A DNA stretch of 64,000 nt from Candidatus Babelota bacterium (GTDB lineage Bacteria; Babelota; Babeliae; Babelales; JACPOV01), in contig JACPOV010000008.1 in NCBI GenBank assembly GCA_016191325.1, forward strand, positions 578,900 through 642,899, in the 5' to 3' direction. Within the stretch, counting starts at the first letter, position 1. Every line of letters starts with the position of its first letter. Below the pieces are notes generated by a model. That model did no database searches and was not told the origin of the DNA. It worked only from the letters and a program-made list of their open reading frames with translations. This document shows, in pieces, positions 15,038 through 61,561 of the stretch. Both the position numbers and the translations under genes were made by a program.

Positions 15038-16702
15038 CTACAGTCCAATAAGCGAAACTACCTTTTTGATCAATTCCTGTATCCCTGGATCAAAGCTAAG
15101 GAAAACATCAATTGCCTCTTTACTCTTTGTTATATTAACCTGTTCCCCTTTGTGTTGCGCAATAAACGCCAAAAATGCTGCTTGAGGCAAAGTAATTTTT
15201 AGTGCAAGATCCTGTAATAAAAATAATGGTTTAAGATCGTAGAAATAAACTACTTTGCTATCCGGTAGATCGATTGATGCAAGAACAAGAGTCTCCCCTT
15301 TTGCATCAATGGCACCTACTTGAACACGATCCTTGAGTGGAAGTGAAGTAACAAGCTTACCTGTTGTTAAATCGTTTAACGAGATGCTGCCCGAAATTCT
15401 ACGAAAACCACCCTCTTGCGATAAAGCAACGACGAATTTATTTAACGGATCGAAGACGATTTGAGAAACTTCTCCAGATATGAAAAATGGGGCTTTATAG
15501 CTTTTATCAGCTTCCATGTCATAAATCGTAATGCTATTTTGATCTTTTTTTGTATCGATAATGGTAGCAAACTGTCCGTTATTACTTAATCTAACATTGC
15601 CTATTTCTTTTTTGGCAAGAAGCATTTTTTCAATTTTTTCGCCGGTTTTAAGATTAACTTGAATAATTTCCCCGACCGCATTAGCAATGCTTAAATATTT
15701 ATCATCATCAGAAAATGCCAGCGTTGAAAGAACACTGCCATTCGTTTTTAGCGAAACAGATATTGTTTCAGTTTTGGCAGTTGCGATCTCAAAAAGTATA
15801 ATCTCGTATCCCTTTTCATCATCAATGTTGCCGCCTACAGCAATTTTTTTATTATCATGAGAAAAACAAAGTCCCGTTGGATTAAATGACAAAGATTTTT
15901 CTGCGGTGAGCCCCGTCGGCTTCTTTAGTGACCATAATTCCAGTTTTTTATTTATTGTTCCCACAGCAAACCATAATCCGTCAGTGCTCAAAGCATATGA
16001 TATAATCCGGTTTCCTATTTTAATATCGACCCCATTTTTTGGGTCTTGAATAGTTTGAAAGCGGACTTTACCTAATGCTGACCCTTTATTAATCAAAACG
16101 ACACTTTTTCCTGACGCGCTGAAAGCAATCGTGTCAAAATCAGCTTGAACTTGTTGAGACGATATTCGCCCGCCAGACAACGAACTCTGTATAGCCTCTT
16201 GCTTAATAAGCGCCGCTGCTATTCGTTCTTGTACTGTTTGTGGCAACACAAAAGATTTAACTGCCAGCGGATCAGTTTTTGCACGCTCCGTGATTCGTTT
16301 AAGCGCTTCCTGAATCAACGCTTCATCAAGTTTATCTATCCCCAGAAAATCTACCACTGCAATGAGTTGCTCTATTTCTGCCGTTGACTGCGTCGAAAGA
16401 AACTTCCTTAGCGCTGCCGAATTAGTTAAATATGGCAGAGCTTTAACCAATAAAGCAATTTGATATTTCGGTAATTTAGCCATGTTAAAAGAAGAAATAG
16501 TGTCAAGATTAAGCTTTTCAAATTCGACGATCTTATTCAATGCCTCTGAGTTGCGCATAATACTTTTAAAACTATCGCGAGCAATAGCAATCGGCCCATT
16601 TGCAGTGTTGATGGTAACTTTATCGCTTGATGATGGCGGTAATTCCATAGAAACCGCTTGTATAACTATCATGAGCGCACAAATAATACTTAATCTTTTC
16701 AT
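15038..16702 (-). CDS. exported Skp1/BTB(POZ)-fold plus beta-propeller repeat protein
   Basis: Signal-like MKRLSIICALMIVIQAVS. The N-terminal domain ends IEQLIAVVDFLGIDKLDEALIQEALKRI (BTB/Skp1 helix pattern), and WD40/PD40-like repeats follow (e.g. LAFSDDDKYLSIANAVGEIIQVNL). It is a paralog of 27286-29013. Confidence 0.6.
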   Translation of the reverse strand: MKRLSIICALMIVIQAVSMELPPSSSDKVTINTANGPIAIARDSFKSIMRNSEALNKIVEFEKLNLDTISSFNMAKLPKYQIALLVKALPYLTNSAALRKFLSTQSTAEIEQLIAVVDFLGIDKLDEALIQEALKRITERAKTDPLAVKSFVLPQTVQERIAAALIKQEAIQSSLSGGRISSQQVQADFDTIAFSASGKSVVLINKGSALGKVRFQTIQDPKNGVDIKIGNRIISYALSTDGLWFAVGTINKKLELWSLKKPTGLTAEKSLSFNPTGLCFSHDNKKIAVGGNIDDEKGYEIILFEIATAKTETISVSLKTNGSVLSTLAFSDDDKYLSIANAVGEIIQVNLKTGEKIEKMLLAKKEIGNVRLSNNGQFATIIDTKKDQNSITIYDMEADKSYKAPFFISGEVSQIVFDPLNKFVVALSQEGGFRRISGSISLNDLTTGKLVTSLPLKDRVQVGAIDAKGETLVLASIDLPDSKVVYFYDLKPLFLLQDLALKITLPQAAFLAFIAQHKGEQVNITKSKEAIDVFLSFDPGIQELIKKVVSLIGL

Positions 16703-17042: not shown

Positions 17043-17660
17043 TTATTTTTTACGATATTTCCAAAAGAGGATACAAAACAATACATACATCATCAAACCA
17101 CGAATATCATTTGCAATAATATTGAATGGCAAATCAAGAATAAGCGCACCAAACAGTTCAAAAAGATTAGCGAGCGTGAGCAATGTAATAAATGCAAAAC
17201 TGAAACCCTCGACCGATTTGGTTTGAATAATTTTAATAAGTTGTGGAAATAGATACAAAAATTGAGCCCAGAAACCGAACCACCCAAGAATTGAACCATA
17301 ATAATAGGAATTATACATTACAAACGGAATTGAACTCGCAAAGAGAGAACCCAGAGTTACGATTGCAATAAGAAAGCGTTTTGAGCGTGGCCAATCGTAA
17401 AAAACTCTCTGCGCTAGAACAACAAGAAACAATAAAAAACCAATCGACCCCAATAACTGATACACAAATGGCAAATGACAGCAAAAAATAAAAAAAATGC
17501 CGCAGAGATTCATAATCAGATTACCGATAAGCATCAAATCGCTCAGGCCCTCTGCATTGGCTACGCGATAATTTAATACAATCTGTGGAATCATCGAATA
17601 GAGCATCAAAATCCATGAGATTGTTAGAAATACGGTACCGATCAATGGATAATTAATCAT
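17043..17660 (-). CDS. 7-TM PQ-loop repeat family membrane protein
   Basis: Two PQ-loop motifs, MIPQIVLNYRVANAEGLS and LFPQLIKIIQTKSVEGFS, each at the start of a 3-helix unit. About seven hydrophobic helices in total. Confidence 0.7.
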   Translation of the reverse strand: MINYPLIGTVFLTISWILMLYSMIPQIVLNYRVANAEGLSDLMLIGNLIMNLCGIFFIFCCHLPFVYQLLGSIGFLLFLVVLAQRVFYDWPRSKRFLIAIVTLGSLFASSIPFVMYNSYYYGSILGWFGFWAQFLYLFPQLIKIIQTKSVEGFSFAFITLLTLANLFELFGALILDLPFNIIANDIRGLMMYVLFCILFWKYRKK

Positions 17661-20892: not shown

Positions 20893-21153
20893 TTAGAACC
20901 AATCTTTGTTGTTCTCGTTTTTAAATACTACTAATTGCTTTTCATCAAATTTATAGCGGTTAAAAATGCCGAATAACTCTATTAATTCACTATCTTCGAT
21001 TTTGTTAGATATAATATGAACGTGGAGAGCATTTCCCACCCCTTTATAATCTTCTATGCAATTTATTTTTTTTAACCAATTAAAAAACAAATCTTCATCA
21101 TTAGTTGTATAAAAACGTAATGGTGAACAAACTAAAGTGATTTTTTTTGTCAT
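20893..21153 (-). CDS. small hypothetical protein, tandem paralog 2
   Basis: 86 aa. DEDLFFNWLKKINCIEDYKG...SELIELFGIFNRYKFDEKQLVVF aligns with 20503-20805. Confidence 0.5.
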   Translation of the reverse strand: MTKKITLVCSPLRFYTTNDEDLFFNWLKKINCIEDYKGVGNALHVHIISNKIEDSELIELFGIFNRYKFDEKQLVVFKNENNKDWF

Positions 21154-27285: not shown

Positions 27286-29013
27286 ATGAGCAAAAAGCTG
27301 TTTATTATTTTACTGGCATGTGCCACCACGCTTCATACCAATTATGCGATGGAACTCATTGGTATGGATATCAAACCGCACATAAGTTTGGATGTAATCG
27401 ATGGTACATTCGAAATCAATGAATCAGATTATGGTCTATTGGAAAATTATTCGATCACCATGAAAGACTATCAAGAAGATACCAAAGAAGAGTTGAAAAA
27501 GTTCAAGTTAACGAAAAACTCATTAACTACTCTCATTAATTATTTAAGTATGCTCGATTCAAACAAAGAAAAACTCCTCAATCAGCTTAAGACAGAAAAA
27601 AATGAAGATTTAAATATAGGACTTCAAGCAGCCGATTATCTTAATATTCCTGATTTGGTTACTGCGATTACTGATGAATTAGCGACTCGCTTCAATTCAG
27701 CGCAATTTATTTCGCAATTCAAAAAAAATCCTGCGATTCTCAAAAACTTAAAACTTTATCCTCAAATCAACAATGCTATAGCAAAAAAAATTCTCGAAAA
27801 AAATTCTCCTGTAGTGAGCTTTCTGAAATCACAATTGAAGTTTCCAATTATTAATAATGCTTCGATAACGGACACTGTAAATAAAGTTTTTGCAATTAAC
27901 CCTAAAAATACCATTATTGCTTTTGGTGCGCCAAAAGTTACTGAATCAAAAACAATAAAAGCAATTGTTAACCTGTATGACATCGTCAGCGGCACATTAA
28001 TTCATACTATTGATGATGATTCATTTGGCAATTCGATTTATGGACTTTCATTCAGCCCCGATGGAACTATGCTTGGCATAGCTGATCGAGCTTCTTTTTA
28101 TCTCTATAATGCAACTACCTATAAGCCTATTAAACAATTCGATTCTGATGCATTTACTGTCGCGTTCACAAGCGATAGTAAAAATGTTGCATTTAGTGAT
28201 GGGGCGACGGTAAATATTTGGGACTTTGAGCAGCAAAATATTATTTTTACAGATGCTCCCGTTCAAGAAGGTATACTTACAAACCTTATATTTAGCCCAA
28301 ACAATGAATTCCTTGCCGGATCCTTCGGCCATACATTTATTAACTGGAATCTTGGAATCATAAATCCTTTAATCTTTCCTAGCTCAGCCCTTGGACACAA
28401 TATTGCTTATACTAATGCGTCCGAATCTAACCTTAACTCCGATAGAGGCCCTTTCATCTTTACACCAGATAGCTCAGAGATCCTTGTCGGGTTGAAAAAT
28501 GGAGCAATAAATATCCACAGTTTATTCATAGGTTTCAAATCAAAAACATCATTAACTGGTCGCGAAGGCATTAATTCTCTCTGTTTTAGTTCAGATCAAT
28601 CGTTACTAGCAAGTGCAAATGATTTTGGCGTTGATATATTCGATTGGCAAACAAAAAAACAACTTTTTTCTCTCTCTTCAGATCCCGTTTGGTTTGCAAC
28701 GTTTAATAAAATAAATACAAAACTTATTACTGTCGGGGCGGGACAAAAAATCCAAATAACTATATACGATTTATCACCAATTTCTGGGCTACTAAACTAT
28801 CTTAATAACCTTCAAACAGAGCAAATTATTCTTTTACTTTTAATATATAAATATGGATCCGCAATTATTAACGAAAACCAGCAGCTAAAAACGCTGTTTG
28901 AAAGCTTGCCACAAAGTATGAAAACGCTGTTTACTATGCCAACAGCACCCCAAGGTGAATCATTTATGAAAGCTTGGTGGGGTTATGCAAGAAACTATTT
29001 CATGAAAAAATAA
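27286..29013 (+). CDS. exported Skp1/BTB(POZ)-fold plus beta-propeller repeat protein
   Basis: Signal-like [41 protein letters not shown]...[28 protein letters not shown] parallels the Skp1 segments [13 protein letters not shown]... and [25 protein letters not shown]. WD40/PD40-like repeats follow ([36 protein letters not shown]). Confidence 0.6.
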   Translation: [575 protein letters not shown]

Positions 29014-36400: not shown

Positions 36401-38152
36401 ATGCACCTTCTCCGTTCTTTGATCATCCCTTTTTTGATTGCCACCTCGATTTTTGGCGAAAGCACACCGCACATACAAACAATCAAAAAATCGGAAAATG
36501 AATTAGAGGTTTCTCTAATTTTTAATTTAGAGCCGAATCAATTACTTTATAAAGATTCGTTGCACGTATCGGTTGATCATCCCGATATTCATGTTTCCGC
36601 TCTTGAATCGCTGCAAGAACCGGTAAAGCGTTATGATCCAGCAACCAAAGAAACTCAATTGGTATATCTTGATCATGCAGAATTTAAAATAAATGCTCAG
36701 CAAAAAAATGATACTCCACCCACCGATGCTTTCTTGCATCTTATGTATCACGTTAATACCGATCGCGGCCCCGCGCATAGTACAAAAGCGCTTACATTTC
36801 ACGATCAGGAACAGAATGCTCAAGATGAACGCGTACTAGTACAAGATCAAGAAAATCGGAATGTGATACCTATAAATACCGAGCAAGCTCCTGCAAAAAA
36901 ATGGTCCATTTCAGAAAATATTTCGCAATTAATTGAAACTACTAATTCGTTGCCAATGCGTTTAGTTCTGGTATTTTTGCTTGGCTTGCTTTTGAGTTTA
37001 ACGCCGTGCATTTACCCAATGATTCCGATCACGGTCGGCATTTTGCATGCACAAAAAAGCTCTTCGCTGCTTGGAAATTTTGCACGCGCTGGCGCTTATA
37101 CCCTCGGCCTTGCGACGACGTTTGCACTTTTAGGGCTTGGCGCAAGCTATACCGGCCCCATTTATGGAAAATTACTCACGCATCCGATTTCCATATTGGT
37201 TCTTGTCAGCTTTCTTGCTTATTTGGCGTTTTCAATGTTTGGGTTCTATGAAATGTATGTGCCCCGCTTTATGCAGCCATCCGGCTCGCATCGTTCTCGC
37301 TCCGGTTCGCTCGTTTCCGCGTTTCTTTTTGGTACAGCAAGCGGCACGTTTGCATCACCCTGCGTTTCTCCAGGACTCATTCTGCTTTTGAGCATTGTGG
37401 CAACGATGGGCAGCATGTTCATGGGCTTTTTATTGTTGTTTATATTCGGCATAGGATTAAGCACGCCGCTTTTAATTATCGGCACGTTTTCGACATCTCT
37501 TTCTTTGCTTCCGCAAGCTGGCATGTGGATGCTTGAAGTAAAAAAACTATTTGGGCTTCTTCTTTTTGGCGTATGCTTTTATTACCTTTCAGTATTAATG
37601 CCGTGGCACCTTTTGATGATATTCGTTGCGCTCTTTTTAATTACGGTGGGCATTGTTTATTTATCTGCAGATCAAACGCATACCTCGCCCCGCTGGCGAA
37701 AGATTAATAACGCGCTTGGCAGTTTATTCATCATTGGAGCGCTTCTTGCGCTTTCAGAAGGATATAAAGCGTACGTTGCAAATCCGCACGATGATTTCTG
37801 GCAAACCAATTATCAAGAAGCACGCACTCTCGCGCTAAAAGAAAATAAAAAACTTTTTATCGATGTATGGGCCCGCTACTGCTCAATTTGCAAACTTATT
37901 AATAATACGACGCTTAAGGATTGTGCAGTAAGAGATGCGCTCAGCAATTATATACCGCTCAAAATTGATGGCACCGATGAGAATGAAGAATCATATAAAT
38001 ACGTAAAAGAGAAATTTAAGATCGTCGGCTTTCCCGCATTCTTAATTGTGGATCCGACTACCGAAACGATCGAAAAGCGATGGTCGAGCGAGCTTTATCA
38101 AATGCCGCGTGAAGAATTTATTTATGAGCTTAATGCTCACTATAAAAGATAA
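36401..38152 (+). CDS. dsbD: thiol:disulfide interchange protein DsbD
   Basis: N-terminal periplasmic domain. The TM core carries LTPCIYPMIPIT and ASPCVSPGL cysteine motifs. The C-terminal thioredoxin-like domain has CSIC (WARYCSICK). Confidence 0.85.
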   Translation: MHLLRSLIIPFLIATSIFGESTPHIQTIKKSENELEVSLIFNLEPNQLLYKDSLHVSVDHPDIHVSALESLQEPVKRYDPATKETQLVYLDHAEFKINAQQKNDTPPTDAFLHLMYHVNTDRGPAHSTKALTFHDQEQNAQDERVLVQDQENRNVIPINTEQAPAKKWSISENISQLIETTNSLPMRLVLVFLLGLLLSLTPCIYPMIPITVGILHAQKSSSLLGNFARAGAYTLGLATTFALLGLGASYTGPIYGKLLTHPISILVLVSFLAYLAFSMFGFYEMYVPRFMQPSGSHRSRSGSLVSAFLFGTASGTFASPCVSPGLILLLSIVATMGSMFMGFLLLFIFGIGLSTPLLIIGTFSTSLSLLPQAGMWMLEVKKLFGLLLFGVCFYYLSVLMPWHLLMIFVALFLITVGIVYLSADQTHTSPRWRKINNALGSLFIIGALLALSEGYKAYVANPHDDFWQTNYQEARTLALKENKKLFIDVWARYCSICKLINNTTLKDCAVRDALSNYIPLKIDGTDENEESYKYVKEKFKIVGFPAFLIVDPTTETIEKRWSSELYQMPREEFIYELNAHYKR

Positions 38153-41945: not shown

Positions 41946-43202
41946 TTAATCCAGTTTAACAACATCCTCTTTTTCAATTTTCTTCAAAAAGCCTTTATTC
42001 CACAAATTTGAAATTGAAGCAGAAATAATTTCAGCACTTCGGGGCGAATAACCACCTGAAAGAGTCATGCATATGGGAACTTTATGCTTTAGTGCTTGCG
42101 CAAATACGAATTCATCCCGATCTATAATACCTTGCTTAGTTAATTTCATTCTACCAAGCCTGTCTTCTTCAAATGGATCAGTTCCGGCGTTATAAAAAAT
42201 AAGATCTGGTTTGGTGTTATGTATTTCTTGAAATTCATCTAACGCTTGAGGTAGAGCATTCTTTACACTGTTAATATATTTATCACTGCAATCCTGGCAG
42301 TTTCCAGAATGGTTCCCTTTCTTGCAATAAATATCTTTCGAGATCAATTTCTTATGTATCTTTTCTCGAAGTTCGCGACTATCAGTCGCATAGGGGAAAT
42401 TTTTTTCATTATAACAATCAAAAAAATATATATTTTTATCATTTTCTAAACACGACTCAACGCCATCGCCTTGATGCGCATCAAGATCAATATAGAGAAC
42501 TTTCAAATCTTTTTTTTCTTTTTCCCGCAGCTTTTGAAGCGCAAGAGGAATATCTGCATACACACAAAAACCGCTTCCATTATCAGCTTTTGCATGATGA
42601 TATCCACCAGAAAGATTTATTGCAGCTCCGTGCTTAAATGCTAATTGAGTAGCGAGGATTGTTCCTTGTGTTGCATACCGCATTGGTGAAAGTAGATAAC
42701 GTTGTAAAAGAAAATTAGGAATCTTGGCAACTGGAACTTCTACGATTTTTTGAATGGCTTTTGACGAACGTAAGGAATCTAAATATTCCTTTGAGTGAAC
42801 TTTAAGAAGACTATCTTTGGAAACTTCTGATGCTGGCTCATAAAAATGTAAACCTGAAATGTTCCATTCTTTTTTTAATTCATCCGCAACATGTCCATAT
42901 TTTTTTGAATCAAATGGATGAAGTTTTTCTACGCCAAAAAAACCAATATTATAGTTTTCATGATATACGAGAGGAACTTTACTGCCATCGTAACACCAAC
43001 GATCTTTTAATTTCCGTGCAGCATCCCATCCCTTTTTTGCTACGACCGCTGTACCAACAGCAACGGCACACTTCGTTTTTAAATCCCAGCCAAGCGGGTT
43101 TAGCCAATCCATAGCTTTTGTTTGGCTCGAAGAAAAACCGAATGCTATTTGCAATGCAATAAGCAAAAATTTTCGGCAAAAAGGAGAAAATCCTTTGATC
43201 AT
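41946..43202 (-). CDS. class IV (HDAC11-like) histone deacetylase-family deacylase with N-terminal signal/anchor
   Basis: VPLVYHENYNIGFFGVEKLHPFDSKKYG, LSGGYHHAKADNGSGFCVYADI, IDLDAHQGDG and FYNAGTDPFEEDRLG track human HDAC11 motifs almost position by position. The N-terminal segment FLLIALQIAFGFSSS is hydrophobic. Confidence 0.85.
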   Translation of the reverse strand: MIKGFSPFCRKFLLIALQIAFGFSSSQTKAMDWLNPLGWDLKTKCAVAVGTAVVAKKGWDAARKLKDRWCYDGSKVPLVYHENYNIGFFGVEKLHPFDSKKYGHVADELKKEWNISGLHFYEPASEVSKDSLLKVHSKEYLDSLRSSKAIQKIVEVPVAKIPNFLLQRYLLSPMRYATQGTILATQLAFKHGAAINLSGGYHHAKADNGSGFCVYADIPLALQKLREKEKKDLKVLYIDLDAHQGDGVESCLENDKNIYFFDCYNEKNFPYATDSRELREKIHKKLISKDIYCKKGNHSGNCQDCSDKYINSVKNALPQALDEFQEIHNTKPDLIFYNAGTDPFEEDRLGRMKLTKQGIIDRDEFVFAQALKHKVPICMTLSGGYSPRSAEIISASISNLWNKGFLKKIEKEDVVKLD

Positions 43203-47047: not shown

Positions 47048-48430
47048 CTATTCTTCTTGCCCTATAACTTCGTTAGCGGCAATAGCCTTGGTATAGCGAC
47101 GACCTAGCAACGCTGCAGTGATAACCCAGAGCAAAATGATCGAGCCGAATAACCCACTTGCAAAACCTGCGCCCGCACCCATGAAAACGGTCAGCATATT
47201 AACGCCAGAGCCGCTGCCCCGAGCCAATTTTGCTCCAAATGCATCAATCCAAGACTTCGATTTGAATTTAATCTCTTTTACCGTTGGGATGTATAAACTT
47301 TCCCTCACTGGCTGAGCAAACGCATAGTTAAACGATTTAACAAGCACGTATACCAATATGTTTGAGCTGAGAATGAAGTACCAAAGCAATCCACCAGTAA
47401 CTATAGGAATTAAAATAAGGCATCGTTCCTCGCCAAGCCAACGCAATAATGCGCGCGTACCGATAACTGAAATCAAAAATCCTATAAAATGAAGCATGAA
47501 CGCTTGCTCAAAAAGCTTAAAGCTAAAATCGGAAACGTTTGTGGCTGATGATTCAATAACGCCTAAGCGATGATATCCCAAAATGGTATTTACCATTTCA
47601 TAGAAGAAAAGCATCCCGAAAATACCAAAAACATACGGTTGCTTGATGAGCATAGAAAGACCAGTAAGTAATCCCACCTTACCACTCTCTTCCTCTTTTT
47701 TCTCATGGTCTTTTTCAAATTGGTAAACAGCTTCGTAACCATGTAAATAGCGACCAGGAACTTTTTTCATGAGAAAATAAATAACAACTGGCACAAGAAT
47801 TACCATACATGAAAAGAAACAGAGTAACAGTTGGTGATTAACCACATCGGTGAACATACGTTTGCCATCAGCAAAATGCCAACCTAAAAGCCACCACGCA
47901 AATCCTGCACTCAACATACCACCAATTTTTGACCCCGAAACCATCCAAGCATAATTATTTTTAGCAGTTTCCGGACTGTTTACAGAGTTAGCAAATGCCC
48001 AGAAAAGACTGACGACAAACGGCGCATAGCCTTCAACAAAAAAGTAGAAAAACCAGCCAAACAGCCTATTTGGACTTGCATCTGTATTTTGCAAACCAAT
48101 AAGTGAATCCCCTAAAACAGATGCACAAATAAACCCAACGATTCCATAGAAAGCTGCGTAAACATAGAGCAATTGATAGCGGCGCAAGCGATCTACCAGG
48201 TAGGCATAGAAAAAAATTGCAGGAATAAGTAAGAACGTTTCGAGAATTCGGGCAACAGGAACATATTCGCGCCCTACAATTGCCACAAAAATCGAATCGC
48301 GAAGCTCTTTAATAAGTGTATAAGAACCAATAACTAAGAAAAATGACAAGCTCAACAGCAGAAATTTTAATCGCTCGTGCTTATCTTGCCCTACCGCAGC
48401 CATAAAGCTCTGCGCATATCGCATAATCAT
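47048..48430 (-). CDS. ATP/ADP translocase (TLC/NTT nucleotide transporter family), paralog 2
   Basis: 12-TM profile. The N-terminal ERLKFLLLSLSFFLVIGSYTLIKELRDSIFVAIVG follows the TLC pattern (E.KKF......F....NY..LR..KD..VV). Confidence 0.8.
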   Translation of the reverse strand: MIMRYAQSFMAAVGQDKHERLKFLLLSLSFFLVIGSYTLIKELRDSIFVAIVGREYVPVARILETFLLIPAIFFYAYLVDRLRRYQLLYVYAAFYGIVGFICASVLGDSLIGLQNTDASPNRLFGWFFYFFVEGYAPFVVSLFWAFANSVNSPETAKNNYAWMVSGSKIGGMLSAGFAWWLLGWHFADGKRMFTDVVNHQLLLCFFSCMVILVPVVIYFLMKKVPGRYLHGYEAVYQFEKDHEKKEEESGKVGLLTGLSMLIKQPYVFGIFGMLFFYEMVNTILGYHRLGVIESSATNVSDFSFKLFEQAFMLHFIGFLISVIGTRALLRWLGEERCLILIPIVTGGLLWYFILSSNILVYVLVKSFNYAFAQPVRESLYIPTVKEIKFKSKSWIDAFGAKLARGSGSGVNMLTVFMGAGAGFASGLFGSIILLWVITAALLGRRYTKAIAANEVIGQEE

Positions 48431-48608: not shown

Positions 48609-50018
48609 TTAGACAACAACACTCTTTGCATCAACCGCTTTTTTGAAGGTACGGCCGAGGTAAATAGTAATTGGAATCCAGAAGGCAATAATACCTAGTG
48701 ACGCAAAAGTACACATCATAATGAATTGATCAAGGCCAGCTATAGCGCCATATTTTTCAATGAACGTTTTACGCCACAAGTTAACACTTGAGCCAAGTGC
48801 CTTAGATCCACGAGAACCATACATTTCAATGAACGCCTGCGATTTATATTTCGCATCTTTGGTCGTTGGAATGTAAAGTTGCTTCATAGATGGTTGGTTC
48901 AACGCATAGTTGACCGCTTTTGAGAATACCATGATCCAGAAGAGCACACTTACGATTGGATACGCTTTAAACGTAAGAACCGCGACTGCAACCAAAATAG
49001 GAAGCAATGCCAATGACGCACCAAGGCCAAGTACACGTTGGATCTTATTAATGCCAAGCGCAATGCTCAACATAGAAACTACACCAACCCATGAACCATA
49101 AGCAGCCAAATACTTTGTCAGCTCATGTTGAACAGGAAACTGAGCAGTTGCCAATGTCTTAAAGTTGAAATCTAATACGGTAACAATTACTTCGTAGAAC
49201 GAGATAATTGCAAAGATTGCAAGCAAGTAACCTGAAGAGAAGATAAGGCGCAATCCTTCAAAGAACCCAGGTTCTGAATCGTGCTTCTTATCGCCTTTTC
49301 CATGGTAACCAACAAGTTGTTCTTTAGGAATTGAGGCCATGAAAATCTTTACAAGTAGCATAATCAATCCCATAACAATTGCAGCACCTGCAACTGCGCC
49401 AGAGTGGATCAATGCGCTATGAGCTGCAGCGCCAGCTGGCAATTCGCCTTCAGCTGTCAACTCAAAATTAGCGAATTTATGCATAATGAAATAAAGGGCA
49501 AGCGGACCGAAAATATTTCCAAGTTGTCCGCCGAAAGCTACGACCGGATAACCACGTTCAGCAGAATCGGGCTGCGTGGTGTCCGCTGTGAATGCCCAGA
49601 AAAGAGCAACAATCAACGAACCAAAGCTCTCAACATACACGTACCATGCCCATCCCCACAGATTATCAGGACGTGCACCAGCACTTAATCCGACAGTCGA
49701 ATGGTTCATAAGAAGTGCAAATACGATCGCAAGAACACCGTAAATGGTGCACAGAGCATAGAACATTTGCTGACGAGGGAACATATCAACTAATTTTGAA
49801 TAGATCAAAACAAGTGGAAATACTACGACCAATGAAAGCATTTTTGCTCGTGGAATGTAGTCAACGCCTACTACCGCTTGAAAAATAGAGTCTTTGAGCG
49901 GACGCAAGAACCAGTACACACCGATCACCAACCCAAAGATCAAGGATAGAAGGCCAAATTTTTTCAGCTCCCCTTCTTGAAAATCTCCCCACCACCACCG
50001 AGCAATTTTGGTAAGCAT
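48609..50018 (-). CDS. ATP/ADP translocase (TLC/NTT nucleotide transporter family), paralog 1
   Basis: GELKKFGLLSLIFGLVIGVYWFLRPLKDSIFQAVVG N-terminus, a 12-TM profile and conserved blocks shared with 47048-48430 (e.g. FWAFxA, LYIPT.K..K(Y/F)KS(Q/K)..I(E/D)..G). Confidence 0.85.
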   Translation of the reverse strand: MLTKIARWWWGDFQEGELKKFGLLSLIFGLVIGVYWFLRPLKDSIFQAVVGVDYIPRAKMLSLVVVFPLVLIYSKLVDMFPRQQMFYALCTIYGVLAIVFALLMNHSTVGLSAGARPDNLWGWAWYVYVESFGSLIVALFWAFTADTTQPDSAERGYPVVAFGGQLGNIFGPLALYFIMHKFANFELTAEGELPAGAAAHSALIHSGAVAGAAIVMGLIMLLVKIFMASIPKEQLVGYHGKGDKKHDSEPGFFEGLRLIFSSGYLLAIFAIISFYEVIVTVLDFNFKTLATAQFPVQHELTKYLAAYGSWVGVVSMLSIALGINKIQRVLGLGASLALLPILVAVAVLTFKAYPIVSVLFWIMVFSKAVNYALNQPSMKQLYIPTTKDAKYKSQAFIEMYGSRGSKALGSSVNLWRKTFIEKYGAIAGLDQFIMMCTFASLGIIAFWIPITIYLGRTFKKAVDAKSVVV

Positions 50019-58043: not shown

Positions 58044-58080
58044 GATATCAAGTGCAATCAAATTGACCGCACTTGATATC
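58044..58080 (-). terminator. candidate terminator after the phospholipase gene
   Basis: 12-bp stem gatatcaagtgc / gcacttgatatc directly downstream of stop 58089 on the minus strand, with a T-rich tail. Confidence 0.5.
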
Positions 58081-58088
58081 TGAATCTT

Positions 58089-60014
58089 TCAACCACCAAT
58101 TTCAAGTTCTTGCTTGAACACAATATCGTTTACTATCTGTTTGATCTCGTGCTTGTACGCTTTGACAATAAGTTCCGATACGCCGGTAAGCTGATTAAAT
58201 TGCTCAATGTTGTACGCGAAATTGAACGTGCCGCAAAAATCACTCTCAACACATTTTTCCATAGAAAAATTTGAAAGCTGATGTTTCTCAATCAATTCAC
58301 GTAGCTCAGGAATTGTGGACGCTTTTTTAATAAATTCTGGATTGGGGAAAAAGTGGAAATAAACAATAAGCGGGGAAATGTCGTCTTCCGGCGCTGTGCG
58401 ATAAACTTGAAACAGATCGCCACTGATGAGAGGAACTTTTTCATATTTTACTTTATAAACACGTTCAATATCGCTCAACATTTTAGTAAGTTCGCCTCCA
58501 GCTATCGCATCGCTTGAGGCATCTCCAATAAATATAAGTTTAACATTTCGATCTTGCCTCAATAGTGGCCGGATTGGAATGTTATAATCAATACCTGCAT
58601 CAACAAACGTAATTTGCTCACGAGCTTGGAGCCACGAACTTCCTTTATCGTATCCTTTGAACGGATTGCGCACTTGGCCCGGTGCAATTCTTCTTGTGCC
58701 TATGCGCGAATCGCTCAATCCATTAATAACTATTTTAGTAATACCAACGGCAATCGCATCGAAGCTGATGGTTTTGAAAGGATTTTCTATCCCTCCAAAA
58801 ATAATATTACTCGCTTCTATTTCTTCCGCTTGCGTTACAGGCCCGGCGCTCGTGTTAATAATACTGCGCATATCTTGCAAGTTAATCGTATAAGCTGAAC
58901 CGAAAATCCCCATCTGAAAACCAAAACTTTGCTCCGGAGCAAAATCGACCGATTTACCATTTTCAAATCGGCGACCGAACGCAAAAGAAGGAATCGCTAA
59001 TCCAGTTTCTAAATTTCGCACTTCTTCTGGTGTAAATTCATACCAGTTATATTGATATAATCCTTCATTATCTTTTGCCATAGAAACGGCAGTATAAAGC
59101 GGCCAAGGATTATTTCCTTGTTGCACACTAAACCATTGGTTTGAAAGATGCTGGCGCTGCTGCATATCGCCAAAGTCAGAAAGCAATGCATGCGCAAGAA
59201 GTGCGCCATATAAATCAACAGAGCTCACCACTTGCCCAAATACAACCTTGGGAAAAATAACATCATTTGCAAGGCGCAAGAAACTCAACGAATTTCTATT
59301 TCCGCTTCCTTTTAAATCGAAGGTATCCGCCTTAATTTTATCACGCAGCTTTTGGTTAAATTCATCGATCGAAACAAACTTATTATTATTTGGCTGTTGC
59401 ATTAAAGTCCATGGGCCGATATACCACGTTGATCCTGAAAGTGCAGAAACATAGGTGAGTGCATCAAGCAACCCCAAGTCTTGCAACCCTTTCATAAAAC
59501 CTGCGGTGATCACCATCGATCGATAACCGCCACCGCTAAAAGCGCACGCTATTTTAGGCACGGCGTCGATCGGAATTGAATAAGAACCAAGAAAATTCTG
59601 AAGAGCCGTTTGAACTTTTCTTGTACGTTTTACTAAAAATTCGCCTTCTAGTGATTGCCCCGGCTTGAGAATTTTATTTTCATTGGCGACTTGTGCAACA
59701 CTATTTTTATAAGGGCTTTTTGATGACAGTAATTGAATAACGTAATCTTTTACAGCAGGCAATCCATATTTTGTGCCCAACTCATAAAAACTAATCTCTT
59801 GGATTTTCTTTTTTGCAAAGTTAACCGATACGGTTAACATATCTTCGAGCCGCGCATCTCTTAATTCTTTCTCAATCTCTTGAGAAAGTTCCTTAACGGT
59901 TTCGTTTAAACCTTGTTGGATCGATTTGCGTTCTGTTATTTCCGACATGCCAGCAAGAATAACAAGCCCAATTAAAATAGCAGTGCGCGCTCCATACCCT
60001 ATGTTCTTACTCAT
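58089..60014 (-). CDS. membrane-anchored cPLA2-type (PLA2_B family) phospholipase/lysophospholipase
   Basis: CAFSGGGYRSMVITAGFMKGL and TYVSALSGSTWY match the eukaryotic cPLA2 motifs SGGGFRAM and TYVAGLSGSTWY. The Asp motif FVDAGIDYNIPIRPLL compares with LVDSGLTFNLPYP. An N-terminal hydrophobic anchor is present. Confidence 0.8.
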   Translation of the reverse strand: MSKNIGYGARTAILIGLVILAGMSEITERKSIQQGLNETVKELSQEIEKELRDARLEDMLTVSVNFAKKKIQEISFYELGTKYGLPAVKDYVIQLLSSKSPYKNSVAQVANENKILKPGQSLEGEFLVKRTRKVQTALQNFLGSYSIPIDAVPKIACAFSGGGYRSMVITAGFMKGLQDLGLLDALTYVSALSGSTWYIGPWTLMQQPNNNKFVSIDEFNQKLRDKIKADTFDLKGSGNRNSLSFLRLANDVIFPKVVFGQVVSSVDLYGALLAHALLSDFGDMQQRQHLSNQWFSVQQGNNPWPLYTAVSMAKDNEGLYQYNWYEFTPEEVRNLETGLAIPSFAFGRRFENGKSVDFAPEQSFGFQMGIFGSAYTINLQDMRSIINTSAGPVTQAEEIEASNIIFGGIENPFKTISFDAIAVGITKIVINGLSDSRIGTRRIAPGQVRNPFKGYDKGSSWLQAREQITFVDAGIDYNIPIRPLLRQDRNVKLIFIGDASSDAIAGGELTKMLSDIERVYKVKYEKVPLISGDLFQVYRTAPEDDISPLIVYFHFFPNPEFIKKASTIPELRELIEKHQLSNFSMEKCVESDFCGTFNFAYNIEQFNQLTGVSELIVKAYKHEIKQIVNDIVFKQELEIGG

Positions 60015-60149
60015 AAGCTCTCCCCCGATCTCTTTTTCTAAAACCTACCAGCCTTTATTTATAATAGTCAATAAATCAAGCATGCTCTTATTAGTGAGCA
60101 GAAATCTGTATAATGGGAAAAACTCGCTAGGAAAAAAGGATTATTTATC

Positions 60150-60599
60150 TTGAGCAAAAATCTATTGCCGTTTACACTCGCCTTTCTTTCTGTACATACT
60201 GCAGTTAATAGTTTTGATACTCTCAAGAACGTGTCGCCTAAAGAGATGCAAACAAGTTCAATCGCACCAAAGTATGGAACCGCAGAATCAATCGTGCGCG
60301 CCCAGCTTGATCAACTGGCTGCACAACAAGAATCATTAAAGCAAAGAGCTATTGAATCGCATGAAAAAAGTGAGAAATTCCAAAGGGTACTCGATACGAT
60401 TGATGCAGAACTTCAAGCGGCGATCAAAAAGAAGGTGCTAGAAGAAAAAGAAACGATAGCTAAAATGAACAATCGCATTCCCATTCATCACGAAAGAACA
60501 TCATGCAATTTTTATTCTTTTCTCTACTTTTTTGCACGTTCGGGCAGGTTGTTTATGCCACTTTTCAATTTGAATCGCTATTACCCGTCAAAACGTTAG
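60150..60599 (+). CDS. hypothetical exported coiled-coil protein (TTG start, 3' end uncertain)
   Basis: 149-aa ORF with a signal-like N-terminus. Its last ~30 codons overlap the next ORF's signal peptide in another frame. Confidence 0.3.
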   Translation: MSKNLLPFTLAFLSVHTAVNSFDTLKNVSPKEMQTSSIAPKYGTAESIVRAQLDQLAAQQESLKQRAIESHEKSEKFQRVLDTIDAELQAAIKKKVLEEKETIAKMNNRIPIHHERTSCNFYSFLYFFARSGRLFMPLFNLNRYYPSKR

Positions 60600-60934: not shown

Positions 60935-61561
60935 TTGCATATGAATAAAAAAATGGCCTTGCTCCTTTTTTGCATCCTATTGCTTGATTTTTCGATTCAT
61001 ACAAGCGTAATGAAGCTAATTGATCAAATGAAGATGCAAACAAATAGCAATACCGGTTATCAAGGTTATTACAGTCCATTTGAAAAAGACAATCAATTTT
61101 TATTCAAAAATACAGCAACATCAAAAACGTCCGGAAATTTTGCAGAATGTGTAAAAAAAACTGAGCATATAAGCGATCCTAAGTTTGTTAAAATCATAGA
61201 AGATATTCATCACGTCGTAGATCCCCGATTTGAGCTGTATATTCTCGCGTCCAATCTGGATAATACTCGTCGAGCACGTATTATTCCTAAGAATCTTAAT
61301 CAGTTAGATAATGGCCAACTTAGTGAACACCTTGCACGGCAACGTCGAACGTTAATAGTAGATAGTCTGAATATCTTAGAAGGATTGGCATTGGCATCAC
61401 ATGATAGTGAGGTTAATCGGTATCTTTTAGCATGTGAGCACATCGAATTATCAACATCTTATCCAAATATTGCTGCTCGACTTCATTTTCCTCAAAAGAT
61501 TGATCAGTTAAATGATTTCTTAAAACAACTCCGTGCATTAAAAACAGAATTAAATCAATGA
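60935..61561 (+). CDS. hypothetical exported protein
   Basis: 208-aa ORF with signal-like [20 protein letters not shown]. No family recognised. Confidence 0.4.

Follow-up and report, generated by a model that had tools for sequence, protein, structure and literature searches.

An intact gene for a C2-less cPLA2-type phospholipase with a predicted signal peptide in a Candidatus Babeliales bacterium

In the window (the whole stretch of 64,000 nucleotides that was analysed), we found a complete reading frame from ATG to TGA on the minus strand that, in the ORF list, spans exactly 58089..60014 and encodes 641 amino acids (Table 1). The four peptides that an earlier note on this DNA had quoted are all present in its translation: FSGGGYRSM at residues 159-167, TYVSALSGSTWY at residues 187-198, FVDAGIDYNIPIRP at residues 470-483 and RTAILIGLVILAGMSEI at residues 10-26. 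The note had given no strand for the gene. A Shine-Dalgarno-like sequence precedes the start codon, and the terminator-like hairpin beyond the stop codon suggests that the gene would form a monocistronic unit. When we scanned for promoters, no sigma-70-like match lay immediately 5' of the gene, and matches were in total no more numerous than in shuffled sequence. The GC content of the gene is 0.401 as compared to 0.398 for the window, and tblastn found no PLA2_B paralogues elsewhere in the window. Compared with the 93%-identical orthologue L001, the gene has a dN/dS of 0.065; it is under purifying selection at a level like that of its housekeeping neighbours.

Table 1. Positions in the window of the coding sequence, its flanking signals and the parts of the encoded protein
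Feature	Position	Strand	Basis and remarks
Complete CDS, PLA2_B/cPLA2-type phospholipase	58089..60014	-	641 aa + TGA stop; PF01735 match, dN/dS
Shine-Dalgarno-like GGGGGAGAG	60018..60026	-	Read from the sequence; ends 3 nt before ATG; function putative
Predicted Sec signal peptide, residues 1-24	59943..60014	-	Hydropathy, N-termini of homologues, -3/-1 rule
Charged helical linker, residues 25-97	59724..59942	-	pLDDT 43-69, helices only in the AF2 model; no Pfam match
cPLA2-type catalytic domain, residues 98-636	58107..59723	-	pLDDT mostly >90; Foldseek; hhalign
Oxyanion loop and phosphate-binding Arg, S160-G-G-G-Y-R165	59520..59537	-	Alignment to 1CJY; human SGGGFR, Arg200
Nucleophile elbow, A191-L-S193-G-S195	59430..59444	-	Alignments; Ser193 codon 59436-59438, = human Ser228
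Short cap/lid region, residues 375-445	58680..58892	-	pLDDT 52-74; hhalign gaps vs vertebrate cPLA2
V471-D472-A-G-I475 with predicted catalytic Asp472	58590..58604	-	Codon 58599-58601; aligns with human Asp549
Cys pair C588-VESDF-C594, putative disulfide	58233..58253	-	Alignment
C-terminal tail L-E-I-G-G	58092..58106	-	Matches family motif [DE]-hydrophobic-G-[GSF]
Terminator-like hairpin, 17-bp stem, T-rich tail	58044..58080	-	9 nt past the stop codon; consensus scan and re-reading of the sequence

The encoded protein belongs to the cPLA2/phospholipase B family (PF01735) but has no C2 domain, and its match scores lie well outside what chance would give. Residues 155-526 match Pfam PLA2_B (PF01735) with 100.6 bits (E = 9.7e-29), which exceeds the curated gathering threshold of 23 bits, and a phmmer search against the PDB recovered human cPLA2 alpha (1CJY) with E = 5e-29. 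Profile-profile alignment to eukaryotic homologues with hhalign (E = 4e-101, 483 columns) widened the homology to residues ~98-636. The AF2 model of the protein (pLDDT 85.9, pTM 0.85) shows the cPLA2 catalytic fold; Foldseek matched the model to 1CJY with E = 1.2e-20 and TM 0.59-0.62, and to human cPLA2 delta (5IZ5) with E = 1e-19. Among proteins of solved structure, human cPLA2 alpha and delta are the closest relatives both in sequence and in predicted fold. In contrast, the Patatin profile reached 10.6 bits (cut-off 27.7, E = 0.64), and the structures of VipD, ExoU, CapV and patatin gave E >= 1.4e-2 and TM <= 0.28. We therefore rejected a patatin-like lipase, and the assignment in the earlier note to the cPLA2/PLA2_B type holds for both profile and fold. 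The patatin-like proteins ExoU, VipD, Rickettsia Pat1/Pat2 and CapV/CapE are functional analogues, in that they are bacterial phospholipases with a Ser-Asp dyad and several of them hit host membranes; they distantly share a FabD/lysophospholipase-like superfold with the ORF protein but belong to another family (PF01734), and the ORF has neither a T3SS/T4SS context nor a CD-NTase neighbour. An anti-phage defence effector (CBASS CapV/CapE and similar) was also rejected, as there was no PADLOC match and no signalling neighbour.

Alignments show that the predicted nucleophile Ser193, the predicted general base Asp472, Arg165 and the GGG loop lie in register with human Ser228, Asp549, Arg200 and GGG, and the Ser-Asp dyad is intact, as had been claimed. 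In the AF2 model, Ser193 lies between a strand (residues 188-191) and a helix (residues 194-204) in a strand-turn-helix arrangement, and Asp472 stands immediately past the strand formed by residues 467-471. Among 322 relatives, the catalytic residues are kept in all non-fragment sequences: no sequence with a residue at these columns departs from G161, G162, G163 and R165 (316-317 of 322, the remainder being alignment gaps), the Ser193 site is Ser in 317 of the 318 sequences with a residue there, and the Asp472 site is Asp in all 313. The nucleophile had been assigned to a G-x-S-x-S/T-W motif. The Ser was correctly identified, but the pentapeptide is not G-x-S-x-S; it actually reads A-L-S-G-S. 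The first position of this motif is G (189), A (66), S (30) or T (28) across the family, and Ala191 in place of Gly ahead of the nucleophile falls within family variation.

Further features mark the rest of the catalytic domain. The cap contains a hydrophobic helix (residues 418-435), residues 412-434 being the second hydropathy maximum of the protein, and this helix is a candidate interfacial or lid element. The cap falls ~100 residues short of that of vertebrate cPLA2 alpha, and the vertebrate regulatory insert is missing from it. C588 and C594, which may form a disulfide, are invariant in an alignment of 83 sequences and are present in 187 and 221 of the 322 relatives, respectively; C157 is the only further Cys in the protein. 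The C-terminal tail, which is disordered in the AF2 model, has counterparts with the motif [DE]-hydrophobic-G-[GSF] in ~30 of the nearest 45 homologues.

At the other end of the protein, the earlier note had named a membrane anchor in its title. The hydrophobic segment is present (RTAILIGLVILAGMSEI), but a cleavable Sec signal peptide is the more probable reading of this N-terminus. Hydropathy is maximal at residues 5-23, and the N-terminus can be divided into an n-region with K3 and R10, an h-region (T11-A21) of only ~11-14 residues and a c-region (G22-M23-S24), with no lipobox Cys. GM[SG] is conserved among the closest homologues, and G22-M23-S24 fits the -3/-1 rule, with cleavage predicted at S24|E25. 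Signal-peptide-like N-termini, with a basic n-region followed by an h-region of 8-17 aa, are found in 69 of 83 homologues. Because of this shared architecture, the invariant Cys pair and a DsbD homologue encoded within the window, the protein is likely to be exported. The charged linker that follows (residues 25-97) sits in the place of a C2 domain, yet is not a C2 domain; there was no Pfam match to C2 (PF00168) in the protein even at E <= 10, as the earlier note had stated.

The protein can be compared with several groups of known eukaryotic proteins. With human cPLA2 alpha and delta it shares the fold (Foldseek E ~1e-20, TM ~0.6), the SGGGxR, xLSGS and xDxG motifs in register and a cap over the active site, at an overall identity of ~25%. 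In contrast to these cytosolic enzymes, the ORF protein has a predicted Sec signal peptide, the Cys pair and the C-terminal E-x-G-G tail, and it has no C2 domain and hence no Ca2+-driven membrane targeting. Within group IV cPLA2 (alpha to zeta), the C2 domain is absent only in gamma. The protein thus lacks the features of animal group IV cPLA2 sensu stricto, which are a C2 domain, a cytosolic location without a signal and placement in the animal clade. The C2-less cPLA2-like lysophospholipases of early-diverging fungi and ascomycetes (Chytridium P0217, Mucor P0214, 'cPLA2 zeta' P0263, P0269), which to our knowledge are uncharacterised, are like the ORF protein in lacking C2, and they share with it an N-terminal extension of the catalytic domain, the helix with the pattern NP/DPxK...A.V..G..L..E..F...R. 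They resemble Dependentiae proteins to a comparable degree, with 26-30% identity and up to 200 bits to some Dependentiae subfamilies, but they form their own clade (82-95% bootstrap) apart from the subfamily in the window, and the sequences inspected (e.g. Mucor P0214, Chytridium P0217) have no signal-peptide-like start. Secreted fungal phospholipases B of the PLB1 type (P0317, P0318) have both a signal peptide and the PLA2_B architecture, and they act extracellularly, which we liken to the predicted export of the ORF protein; PLB1 is a virulence factor of Cryptococcus and Candida. However, these are the most distant group that we compared (~22% identity), they do not group with the window subfamily in the tree, and, as eukaryotic secretory proteins, they differ from the ORF protein in carrying glycosylation and often a GPI anchor.

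The source organism is a Candidatus Babeliales bacterium (Dependentiae/TM6) and an energy parasite; the window encodes two TLC ATP/ADP translocases, plus RING and WD40 proteins, which bears out the host-associated bacterium that had been proposed. Dependentiae (TM6/Babelota) are widespread obligate intracellular parasites of protists. The neighbours of the gene in the window are sodA, recJ, cmk and ORFans, and the flanking genes are housekeeping genes. A 93%-identical orthologue lies in syntenic context on an independent 1.06-Mb contig of the Babeliales MAG GCA_036260945.1, and the same neighbours are seen in three further SRA assemblies, with 8 carrying contigs altogether. The sodA-PLA2_B-recJ slot is kept in ~20 of 51 GTDB loci, tandem arrays of 2-3 PLA2_B copies are present at 14 loci, and fusions of family members to ankyrin repeats occur. 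PLA2_B identity is 27-52% where RecJ identity is 58-73%, indicating that the family diverges faster than its neighbours. Taken together, the slot conserved across the phylum, the tandem arrays and the faster divergence argue that the gene is old and vertically inherited in the phylum, and not a recent transfer. The family accounts for ~500 of ~1,800 detectable clusters at 50% identity, with 496 such clusters at E <= 1e-30. In a scan of GTDB species representatives, which used one motif pattern and is biased to close relatives, the family was found almost only in Dependentiae; one homologue is on a contig of a MAG labelled Riflebacteria.

Previous work found that Dependentiae are unable to make or degrade fatty acids and stated that the route by which they obtain host lipids is unknown (PMC4776705, PMC6561590). 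Chromulinavorax has no lipid biosynthesis and appears to use host lipids; signal peptides are present on 44% of its CDS, and it sheds putative outer-membrane vesicles (PMC6561590). Neither of these genome analyses mentions a phospholipase (PMC4776705, PMC6561590), and in the open-access literature on Dependentiae/TM6/Babelota lipases, PF01735/PLA2_B in bacteria and cPLA2 eukaryotic-like effectors we found no description of the bacterial family. Among the window ORFs scanned against Pfam, there were no lipid-uptake or acyltransferase genes.

The most likely function of the protein, as far as sequence can indicate, would be that of an exported phospholipase A/B or lysophospholipase that acts on host membrane lipids for scavenging and possibly for lysis. 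Since the catalytic residues are kept in all non-fragments of the 322 relatives and dN/dS is 0.065, the enzyme is likely to be active. The signal peptide would direct passage through the inner membrane; beyond it, C588 and C594 could pair in a disulfide, and release into the host-derived compartment might follow through the type II secretion system of the phylum or through outer-membrane vesicles. There the enzyme would work as a PLA, PLB or lysophospholipase and cut the acyl esters in glycerophospholipids or lysophospholipids of the host; with no Ca2+/C2 targeting, the short hydrophobic cap helix probably serves as the interfacial element. The freed fatty acids and lysolipids could then feed a bacterium that has no fatty-acid synthesis, and the enzyme may in addition weaken membranes of the host or the vacuole. 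We favour this reading, in which an active, Sec-exported, C2-less cPLA2/PLB-family enzyme hydrolyses host (lyso)phospholipids, as probable, though by no means secure. An exported cPLA2-type enzyme with intact catalytic residues would be a concrete candidate for how Dependentiae harvest or break host membranes; its gene keeps a single chromosomal slot throughout the phylum, and the family has expanded through tandem arrays and ankyrin fusions.

The earlier note had preferred a membrane-remodelling or vacuole-lysis effector. In this reading, the protein would chiefly be a cytolytic or egress effector that ruptures the vacuolar or plasma membrane, or remodels organelle membranes, and nutrition would be incidental. 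We consider such a role a real but distinctly less probable alternative. Analogues are the patatin-type ExoU and the secreted PLB1 of Cryptococcus. Predicted export would suit an effector, as would the faster divergence than RecJ, and tandem arrays and ankyrin fusions are expected of host-interaction genes; in addition, the known Dependentiae are lytic pathogens, and host membranes fall into disarray late in infection (PMC6561590). However, purifying selection between close relatives is as strong as in housekeeping genes, and no dedicated effector-translocation signal or system is evident. Lysis and scavenging look alike at the level of sequence and the two roles are not mutually exclusive. 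A lysis or remodelling role is plausible; lipid scavenging is at least as likely.

It is unlikely that the protein is instead an envelope housekeeping enzyme, that is, a periplasmic or membrane-tethered (lyso)phospholipase with an uncleaved signal-anchor that turns over the bacterium's own lipids, like the outer-membrane or periplasmic (lyso)phospholipases of other Gram-negative bacteria. That the gene sits among core genes, in a slot kept throughout the phylum, and is under strong purifying selection agrees with this role, and an uncleaved anchor is possible because in the subclade of the window the cleavage site departs from the textbook AxA and the sequence of the h-region is kept. In contrast, housekeeping lipid enzymes do not usually expand in copy number, fuse to ankyrin repeats (a module of interaction with eukaryotes) or diverge fast over the long term, and the family is nearly confined to a host-dependent phylum in the GTDB scan (biased, one motif pattern), the Riflebacteria-labelled homologue notwithstanding.

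Sequence by itself does not settle which reaction the protein would catalyse, since cPLA2 gamma and epsilon, of the same family, act mainly as transacylases or N-acyltransferases (PMC7603386). The protein might mainly transfer acyl chains of host phospholipids to bacterial lysolipids or other acceptors, which we consider slightly more improbable still than a housekeeping role. The same Ser-Asp machinery transacylates in cPLA2 gamma, cPLA2 epsilon and fungal PLBs (PMC7603386), and moving acyl chains directly would let an organism without fatty-acid activation or synthesis (PMC4776705) build its membranes economically. However, the Dependentiae family clusters neither with gamma nor with epsilon, as the animal sequences sampled form their own clade with 100% bootstrap. 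We know of no sequence signature for transferase as compared to hydrolase preference. Finally, although PF01735 is overwhelmingly eukaryotic in the curated literature and one review calls cPLA2 vertebrate-only (PMC7603386), an origin in contaminating host DNA, in misassembly or in a recent transfer now decaying is wholly improbable, and contamination or recent transfer is ruled out by synteny (the same neighbours in the independent Babeliales contig, the SRA assemblies and ~20 other Dependentiae genomes), by the GC match to the window and by dN/dS, the ORF being intact with its Shine-Dalgarno-like sequence and terminator.

To place the protein among its relatives, we used a distance NJ tree (Kimura-corrected, 200 bootstraps) of the homologues recovered, which included no Amoebozoa or other protist sequences. 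We found that the ORF protein falls within a Dependentiae-only clade with 100% bootstrap, outside the clade of the animal sequences sampled (cPLA2 alpha-like, most with C2; 100% bootstrap). The tree resolves subfamilies but not the backbone, and 3% of bootstraps recover a split between eukaryotes and bacteria; the tree demonstrates no eukaryotic donor and no single clade of the bacterial sequences, and the eukaryotic origin that had been proposed for the gene is not established. If there was a transfer, it was ancient, given the phylum-wide synteny and the GC content. For giant viruses as carriers, IMG/VR gave one weak partial match and BFVD gave weak patatin-like matches only. In age and diversity the bacterial family is roughly on a par with the animal and fungal branches; this, together with a backbone that the tree does not resolve, raises the possibility that the cPLA2 domain did not spread by a simple eukaryote-to-bacterium transfer; a transfer may have been very early or reversed. 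As a tentative and rather doubtful extension, exported cPLA2-type lipases, ancient, vertically inherited and repeatedly amplified, might be the missing system for host-lipid acquisition, and for attack on host membranes, of the whole Dependentiae/Babelota. A compact, Ca2+/C2-independent enzyme of the cPLA2 fold that bears a signal peptide could also serve as a model of the catalytic domain alone. The statement that cPLA2 is vertebrate-only (PMC7603386) is corrected by the presence of cPLA2-type domains in corals, early-diverging fungi and a bacterial phylum.

We found that the PLA2_B gene encodes a bona fide member of the PF01735 (PLA2_B) family. In Pfam, PLA2_B matched the window protein with 100.6 bits (cut-off 23; E=9.7e-29), whereas the Patatin profile (PF01734) reached only 10.6 bits, below its cut-off of 27.7; no C2 domain was found even at E≤10, and an NCBIfam search returned no match. 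The sole significant matches among PDB sequences were human cPLA2 alpha (1CJY, E=5e-29, in two stretches) and cPLA2 delta (E about 6e-21). When aligned to cPLA2 alpha, R165 corresponds to Arg200, which binds phosphate, and S193 and D472 to the dyad residues Ser228 and Asp549. An AlphaFold2 model made from 83 homologues (mean pLDDT 85.9, >90 across most of residues 90-636; pTM 0.85) places S193 on a strand-turn-helix elbow and D472 right behind a strand. By Foldseek against the PDB, cPLA2 alpha and delta were found at E=1e-20 to 4e-16 (TM about 0.5-0.6), whereas VipD, ExoU, CapV/CapE, patatin and PlpD appeared only at E≥1.4e-2 (TM≤0.28). Profile-to-profile alignment with 16 named homologues from eukaryotes gave 100% probability (E=4e-101) over 483 columns covering the entire catalytic domain; the cap region of vertebrate cPLA2 alpha is ~100 residues longer than that of the window protein.

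The four peptides singled out in the earlier note are all present (residues 159-167, 187-198, 470-483 and 10-26), and its reading of a PLA2_B-type rather than patatin-type enzyme, with an intact dyad in register with the human catalytic residues and no C2 domain, holds. The G-x-S-x-S nucleophile motif that it described has to be corrected: the pentapeptide is A-L-S-G-S, and its first position (191) is G, A, S or T across the family. Among 322 gathered PLA2_B sequences, the GGG loop, Arg, Ser and Asp are kept in every non-fragment sequence, with one exception (Ser-to-Cys). The gene is under purifying selection, with a dN/dS of 0.065 against the 93%-identical orthologue, inside the range of neighbouring housekeeping genes (0.037-0.086). 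It matches the window in GC content (0.401 against 0.398), a Shine-Dalgarno-like element (GGGGGAGAG) lies 3 nt 5' of the ATG, and a hairpin with a 17-bp stem and a T-rich tail starts 9 nt 3' of the stop codon. The protein has a Ser-Asp acyl hydrolase domain of cPLA2 fold that lacks none of the catalytic elements, and the conserved residues and purifying selection predict that it is active.

To the N-terminal side of this domain, residues 25-97 form a charged helical linker, modelled at low confidence, in which no known domain was matched. The N-terminus itself has a basic n-region (K3, R10) and an uncharged hydrophobic core that spans only T11-A21 (or to S24); G22-M23-S24 meets the –3/–1 rule for signal peptidase I, and there is no lipobox cysteine. 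In 69 of 83 aligned homologues, an h-region of 8-17 residues (median 13) sits behind a basic n-region, and many have textbook cleavage sites, e.g. VMA↓Q and YGA↓K. Two of the only three cysteines, C588 and C594, are invariant in the 83-sequence alignment, and a DsbD-type protein in the window shows that the organism retains a periplasmic thiol-disulfide redox system that bears on this pair. Because of the n/h/c architecture, its recurrence in the homologues, the cysteine pair and DsbD, the N-terminus is probably a cleaved Sec signal peptide and the protein appears to be extracytoplasmic. The earlier note had offered an anchor or a signal; the short h-region and the predicted cleavage site favour the signal over the anchor, and an uncleaved signal-anchor is a possibility in the window protein's subclade. 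At the other end, the C-terminal tail (...QELEIGG) is disordered, and about 30 of the nearest 45 homologues (P0002-P0046) have a similar [DE]-hydrophobic-G-[GSF] ending (EFEFGG, EFGG, GFGG, EFGS, EFEF) that might be a candidate secretion, sorting or host-interaction signal.

To describe the distribution of the family, we scanned GTDB with one motif pattern and one genome per species, a design that favours close relatives, and found 51 loci, 31 of them titled Dependentiae, Babeliales or TM6 and the others mostly unnamed bacteria or assemblies labelled 'uncultured Pseudomonadota'. Four loci with the latter label (L005, L016, L030 and L044) have the gene order rapZ/divIC/sodA-PLA2_B-recJ-cmk-lon as in Dependentiae and a RecJ 59-73% identical to the window's, so these labels look wrong. 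We searched 1.84 billion cluster representatives exhaustively: 1,823 relatives pass E≤1e-3, and 496 of these also pass E≤1e-30; the latter are essentially Dependentiae-type proteins only, with named eukaryotes (87-120 bits) at or below that boundary. One homologue, P0290, lies beside a TonB-dependent receptor and a Fic protein in a Candidatus Riflebacteria-labelled MAG (GCA_015232575.1, 275-kb contig JADFZL010000009.1; locus L057, 6001-8010), which shows that the family is sporadic outside Dependentiae, unless this MAG is mis-binned.

The closest protein, 93% identical, is in Candidatus Babeliales MAG GCA_036260945.1 (1.06-Mb contig), which shares with the window the neighbours rapZ, divIC, sodA, a small ORFan, PLA2_B, recJ, cmk, a P-type ATPase and lon. 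The same slot (sodA upstream, recJ-cmk downstream) recurs in roughly 20 of the 51 loci, and it persists where PLA2_B is just 27-32% identical to the window protein, with RecJ at 58-73% and SodA at 60-72%. Tandem arrays of two or three PLA2_B copies in the same orientation are present at 14 Dependentiae loci (L006, L016-L019, L028, L030, L032, L034, L036, L037 and L039-L041), e.g. at 6001-7440, 7638-8783 and 9547-11106 of L036; there is no paralogue elsewhere within the window. Ankyrin-repeat fusions occur in P0058, P0092, P0136 and the L052 protein. The conserved slot, the arrays and the identities relative to RecJ and SodA indicate that PLA2_B is an ancient gene of the phylum that has been passed on vertically at one fixed position, has duplicated repeatedly and, in the long term, evolves faster than its neighbours. 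Of the two ORFans divergent from PLA2_B in the window, the nearer is conserved in position in the Babeliales MAG (61-65% identity); the farther is absent there, and its N-terminus weakly resembles that of the nearer. At L006, a second PLA2_B copy fills their position.

Two homology searches returned as named relatives chytrids, Mucoromycota, Paraglomus, ascomycete 'cPLA2 zeta'-like proteins and Hyaloraphidium, and also corals (with a C2 domain), a lizard cPLA2 and classical secreted fungal PLBs. These eukaryotic relatives score 165-200 bits with some Dependentiae subfamilies and 87-120 bits with the window's subfamily, from which they are more distant. In a distance-based NJ tree (98 sequences, 477 trimmed columns, 200 bootstraps; eukaryotic sampling biased to fungi and a few animals), the window's subfamily is Dependentiae-only at 100%, a fungal cPLA2-like clade has 82-95% and an animal clade 100%; backbone support is <35%, and a simple eukaryote/bacteria split is present in 3% of replicates. 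Mean identity between Dependentiae groups is 27-37%, little more than the 24-30% between Dependentiae and eukaryotes, and the 25% between animals and chytrids is no higher than the identity of either group to the bacterial proteins. No cPLA2-type homologue in giant viruses was found in two viral resources. On the eukaryotic origin proposed earlier, the tree supports the subfamily clades and does not show a eukaryotic donor. The parsimonious reading is still a transfer from a eukaryote because of the bacterial distribution in the GTDB scan and because PF01735 is mainly eukaryotic in the literature; the tree demonstrates neither donor nor direction, and any transfer must be older than the radiation of lineages with the sodA-recJ slot. 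A 2020 review confined the cPLA2 family to vertebrates (PMC7603386); the cPLA2-type proteins of corals (P0225, P0309 and P0319, with a C2 domain in P0225 and P0319) and the C2-less ones of early-diverging fungi (P0217, P0228-P0259; chytrids and Mucoromycota) contradict that statement.

As for known systems, the window protein is not an animal group IV cPLA2 (no C2 domain, a predicted export signal, a position outside the animal clade), a classical fungal PLB (about 22% identity), a patatin-like effector (Pfam and Foldseek) or a defence lipase. Secreted fungal PLB1 and bacterial patatin-type effectors are functional parallels. Database pipelines already label these bacterial proteins PF01735 or, e.g., 'cytosolic phospholipase A2', and we found no paper describing or testing the bacterial family in the open-access literature.

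The window encodes eukaryote-like proteins and has the marks of an obligately intracellular energy parasite, in agreement with the host association previously suggested. Its tandem TLC translocases are a classic energy-parasite signature and independently confirm an intracellular lifestyle. Two adjacent RING-finger ORFs are candidate E3-ubiquitin-ligase mimics; zf-RING_2 passes its cut-off in one (E=5.7e-9) and narrowly misses it in the other (E=1e-5). The other eukaryote-flavoured ORFs comprise two WD40 beta-propeller proteins, a PQ-loop (SWEET-like) transporter and a histone-deacetylase-domain protein.

Features of the window and their coordinates
Feature	Position	Strand	Evidence
PLA2_B gene, ATG-to-TGA ORF, 641 aa	58089..60014 (exact)	-	PF01735
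PLA2_B C-terminal tail	58092..58106	-	
Two ORFans	60150..60599; 60935..61561	+	signal-peptide-like N-termini
Tandem TLC ATP/ADP translocases	47048..48430; 48609..50018	-	Pfam TLC, E=1e-19 and 3e-30
Adjacent eukaryotic-type RING-finger ORFs	4343..5014; 5154..5810	-	zf-RING_2
Eukaryote-flavoured ORFs	15038..16702; 27286..29013; 17043..17660; 41946..43202	-; +; -; -	
DsbD-type protein	36401..38152	+	DsbD_TM and thioredoxin-like domain matches
FtsH-like protease, 932 aa	23593..26391	-	
Small paralogous ORFs, 100 and 86 aa	20503..20805; 20893..21153	-	
903-aa ORF	12211..14922	+	

TM6 bacteria have no fatty-acid synthesis or degradation and probably exploit host lipids, by a route unknown in published genome analyses (PMC4776705; PMC6561590); a phospholipase is mentioned neither there nor in the Babela genome paper. 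For these reasons we prefer lipid scavenging as the role of the protein, with membrane lysis or egress as a compatible second role. Sec would export the protein and its disulfide would form in the periplasm; release could then be through the type II secretion system, which is core to the phylum, or outer-membrane vesicles (PMC4776705; PMC6561590). The enzyme would attack glycerophospholipids or lysophospholipids of the host at the interface; it has no C2 domain and may use the hydrophobic cap helix 418-435 of the model as an interfacial element. Sequence does not fix the regiochemistry (A1, A2, B or lyso) or how hydrolysis is balanced against transacylation; cPLA2 gamma is mainly a transacylase and cPLA2 epsilon mainly an N-acyltransferase (PMC7603386). 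The significance of the family lies in its phylum-wide conservation, its amplification and its direct bearing on the open question of lipid acquisition.

Three further observations concern other genes of the window. The FtsH-like protease is unusually long, and two AAA stretches precede its M41 peptidase domain instead of the single one typical of FtsH. Two small ORFs without annotation, adjacent to each other and paralogous, share a DEDxFFxWxKKIxCI motif and lie immediately upstream of rpsT and rpmB. The only recognisable feature of the 903-aa ORF is a partial sigma-54-interaction (AAA+) domain at residues ~675-768.
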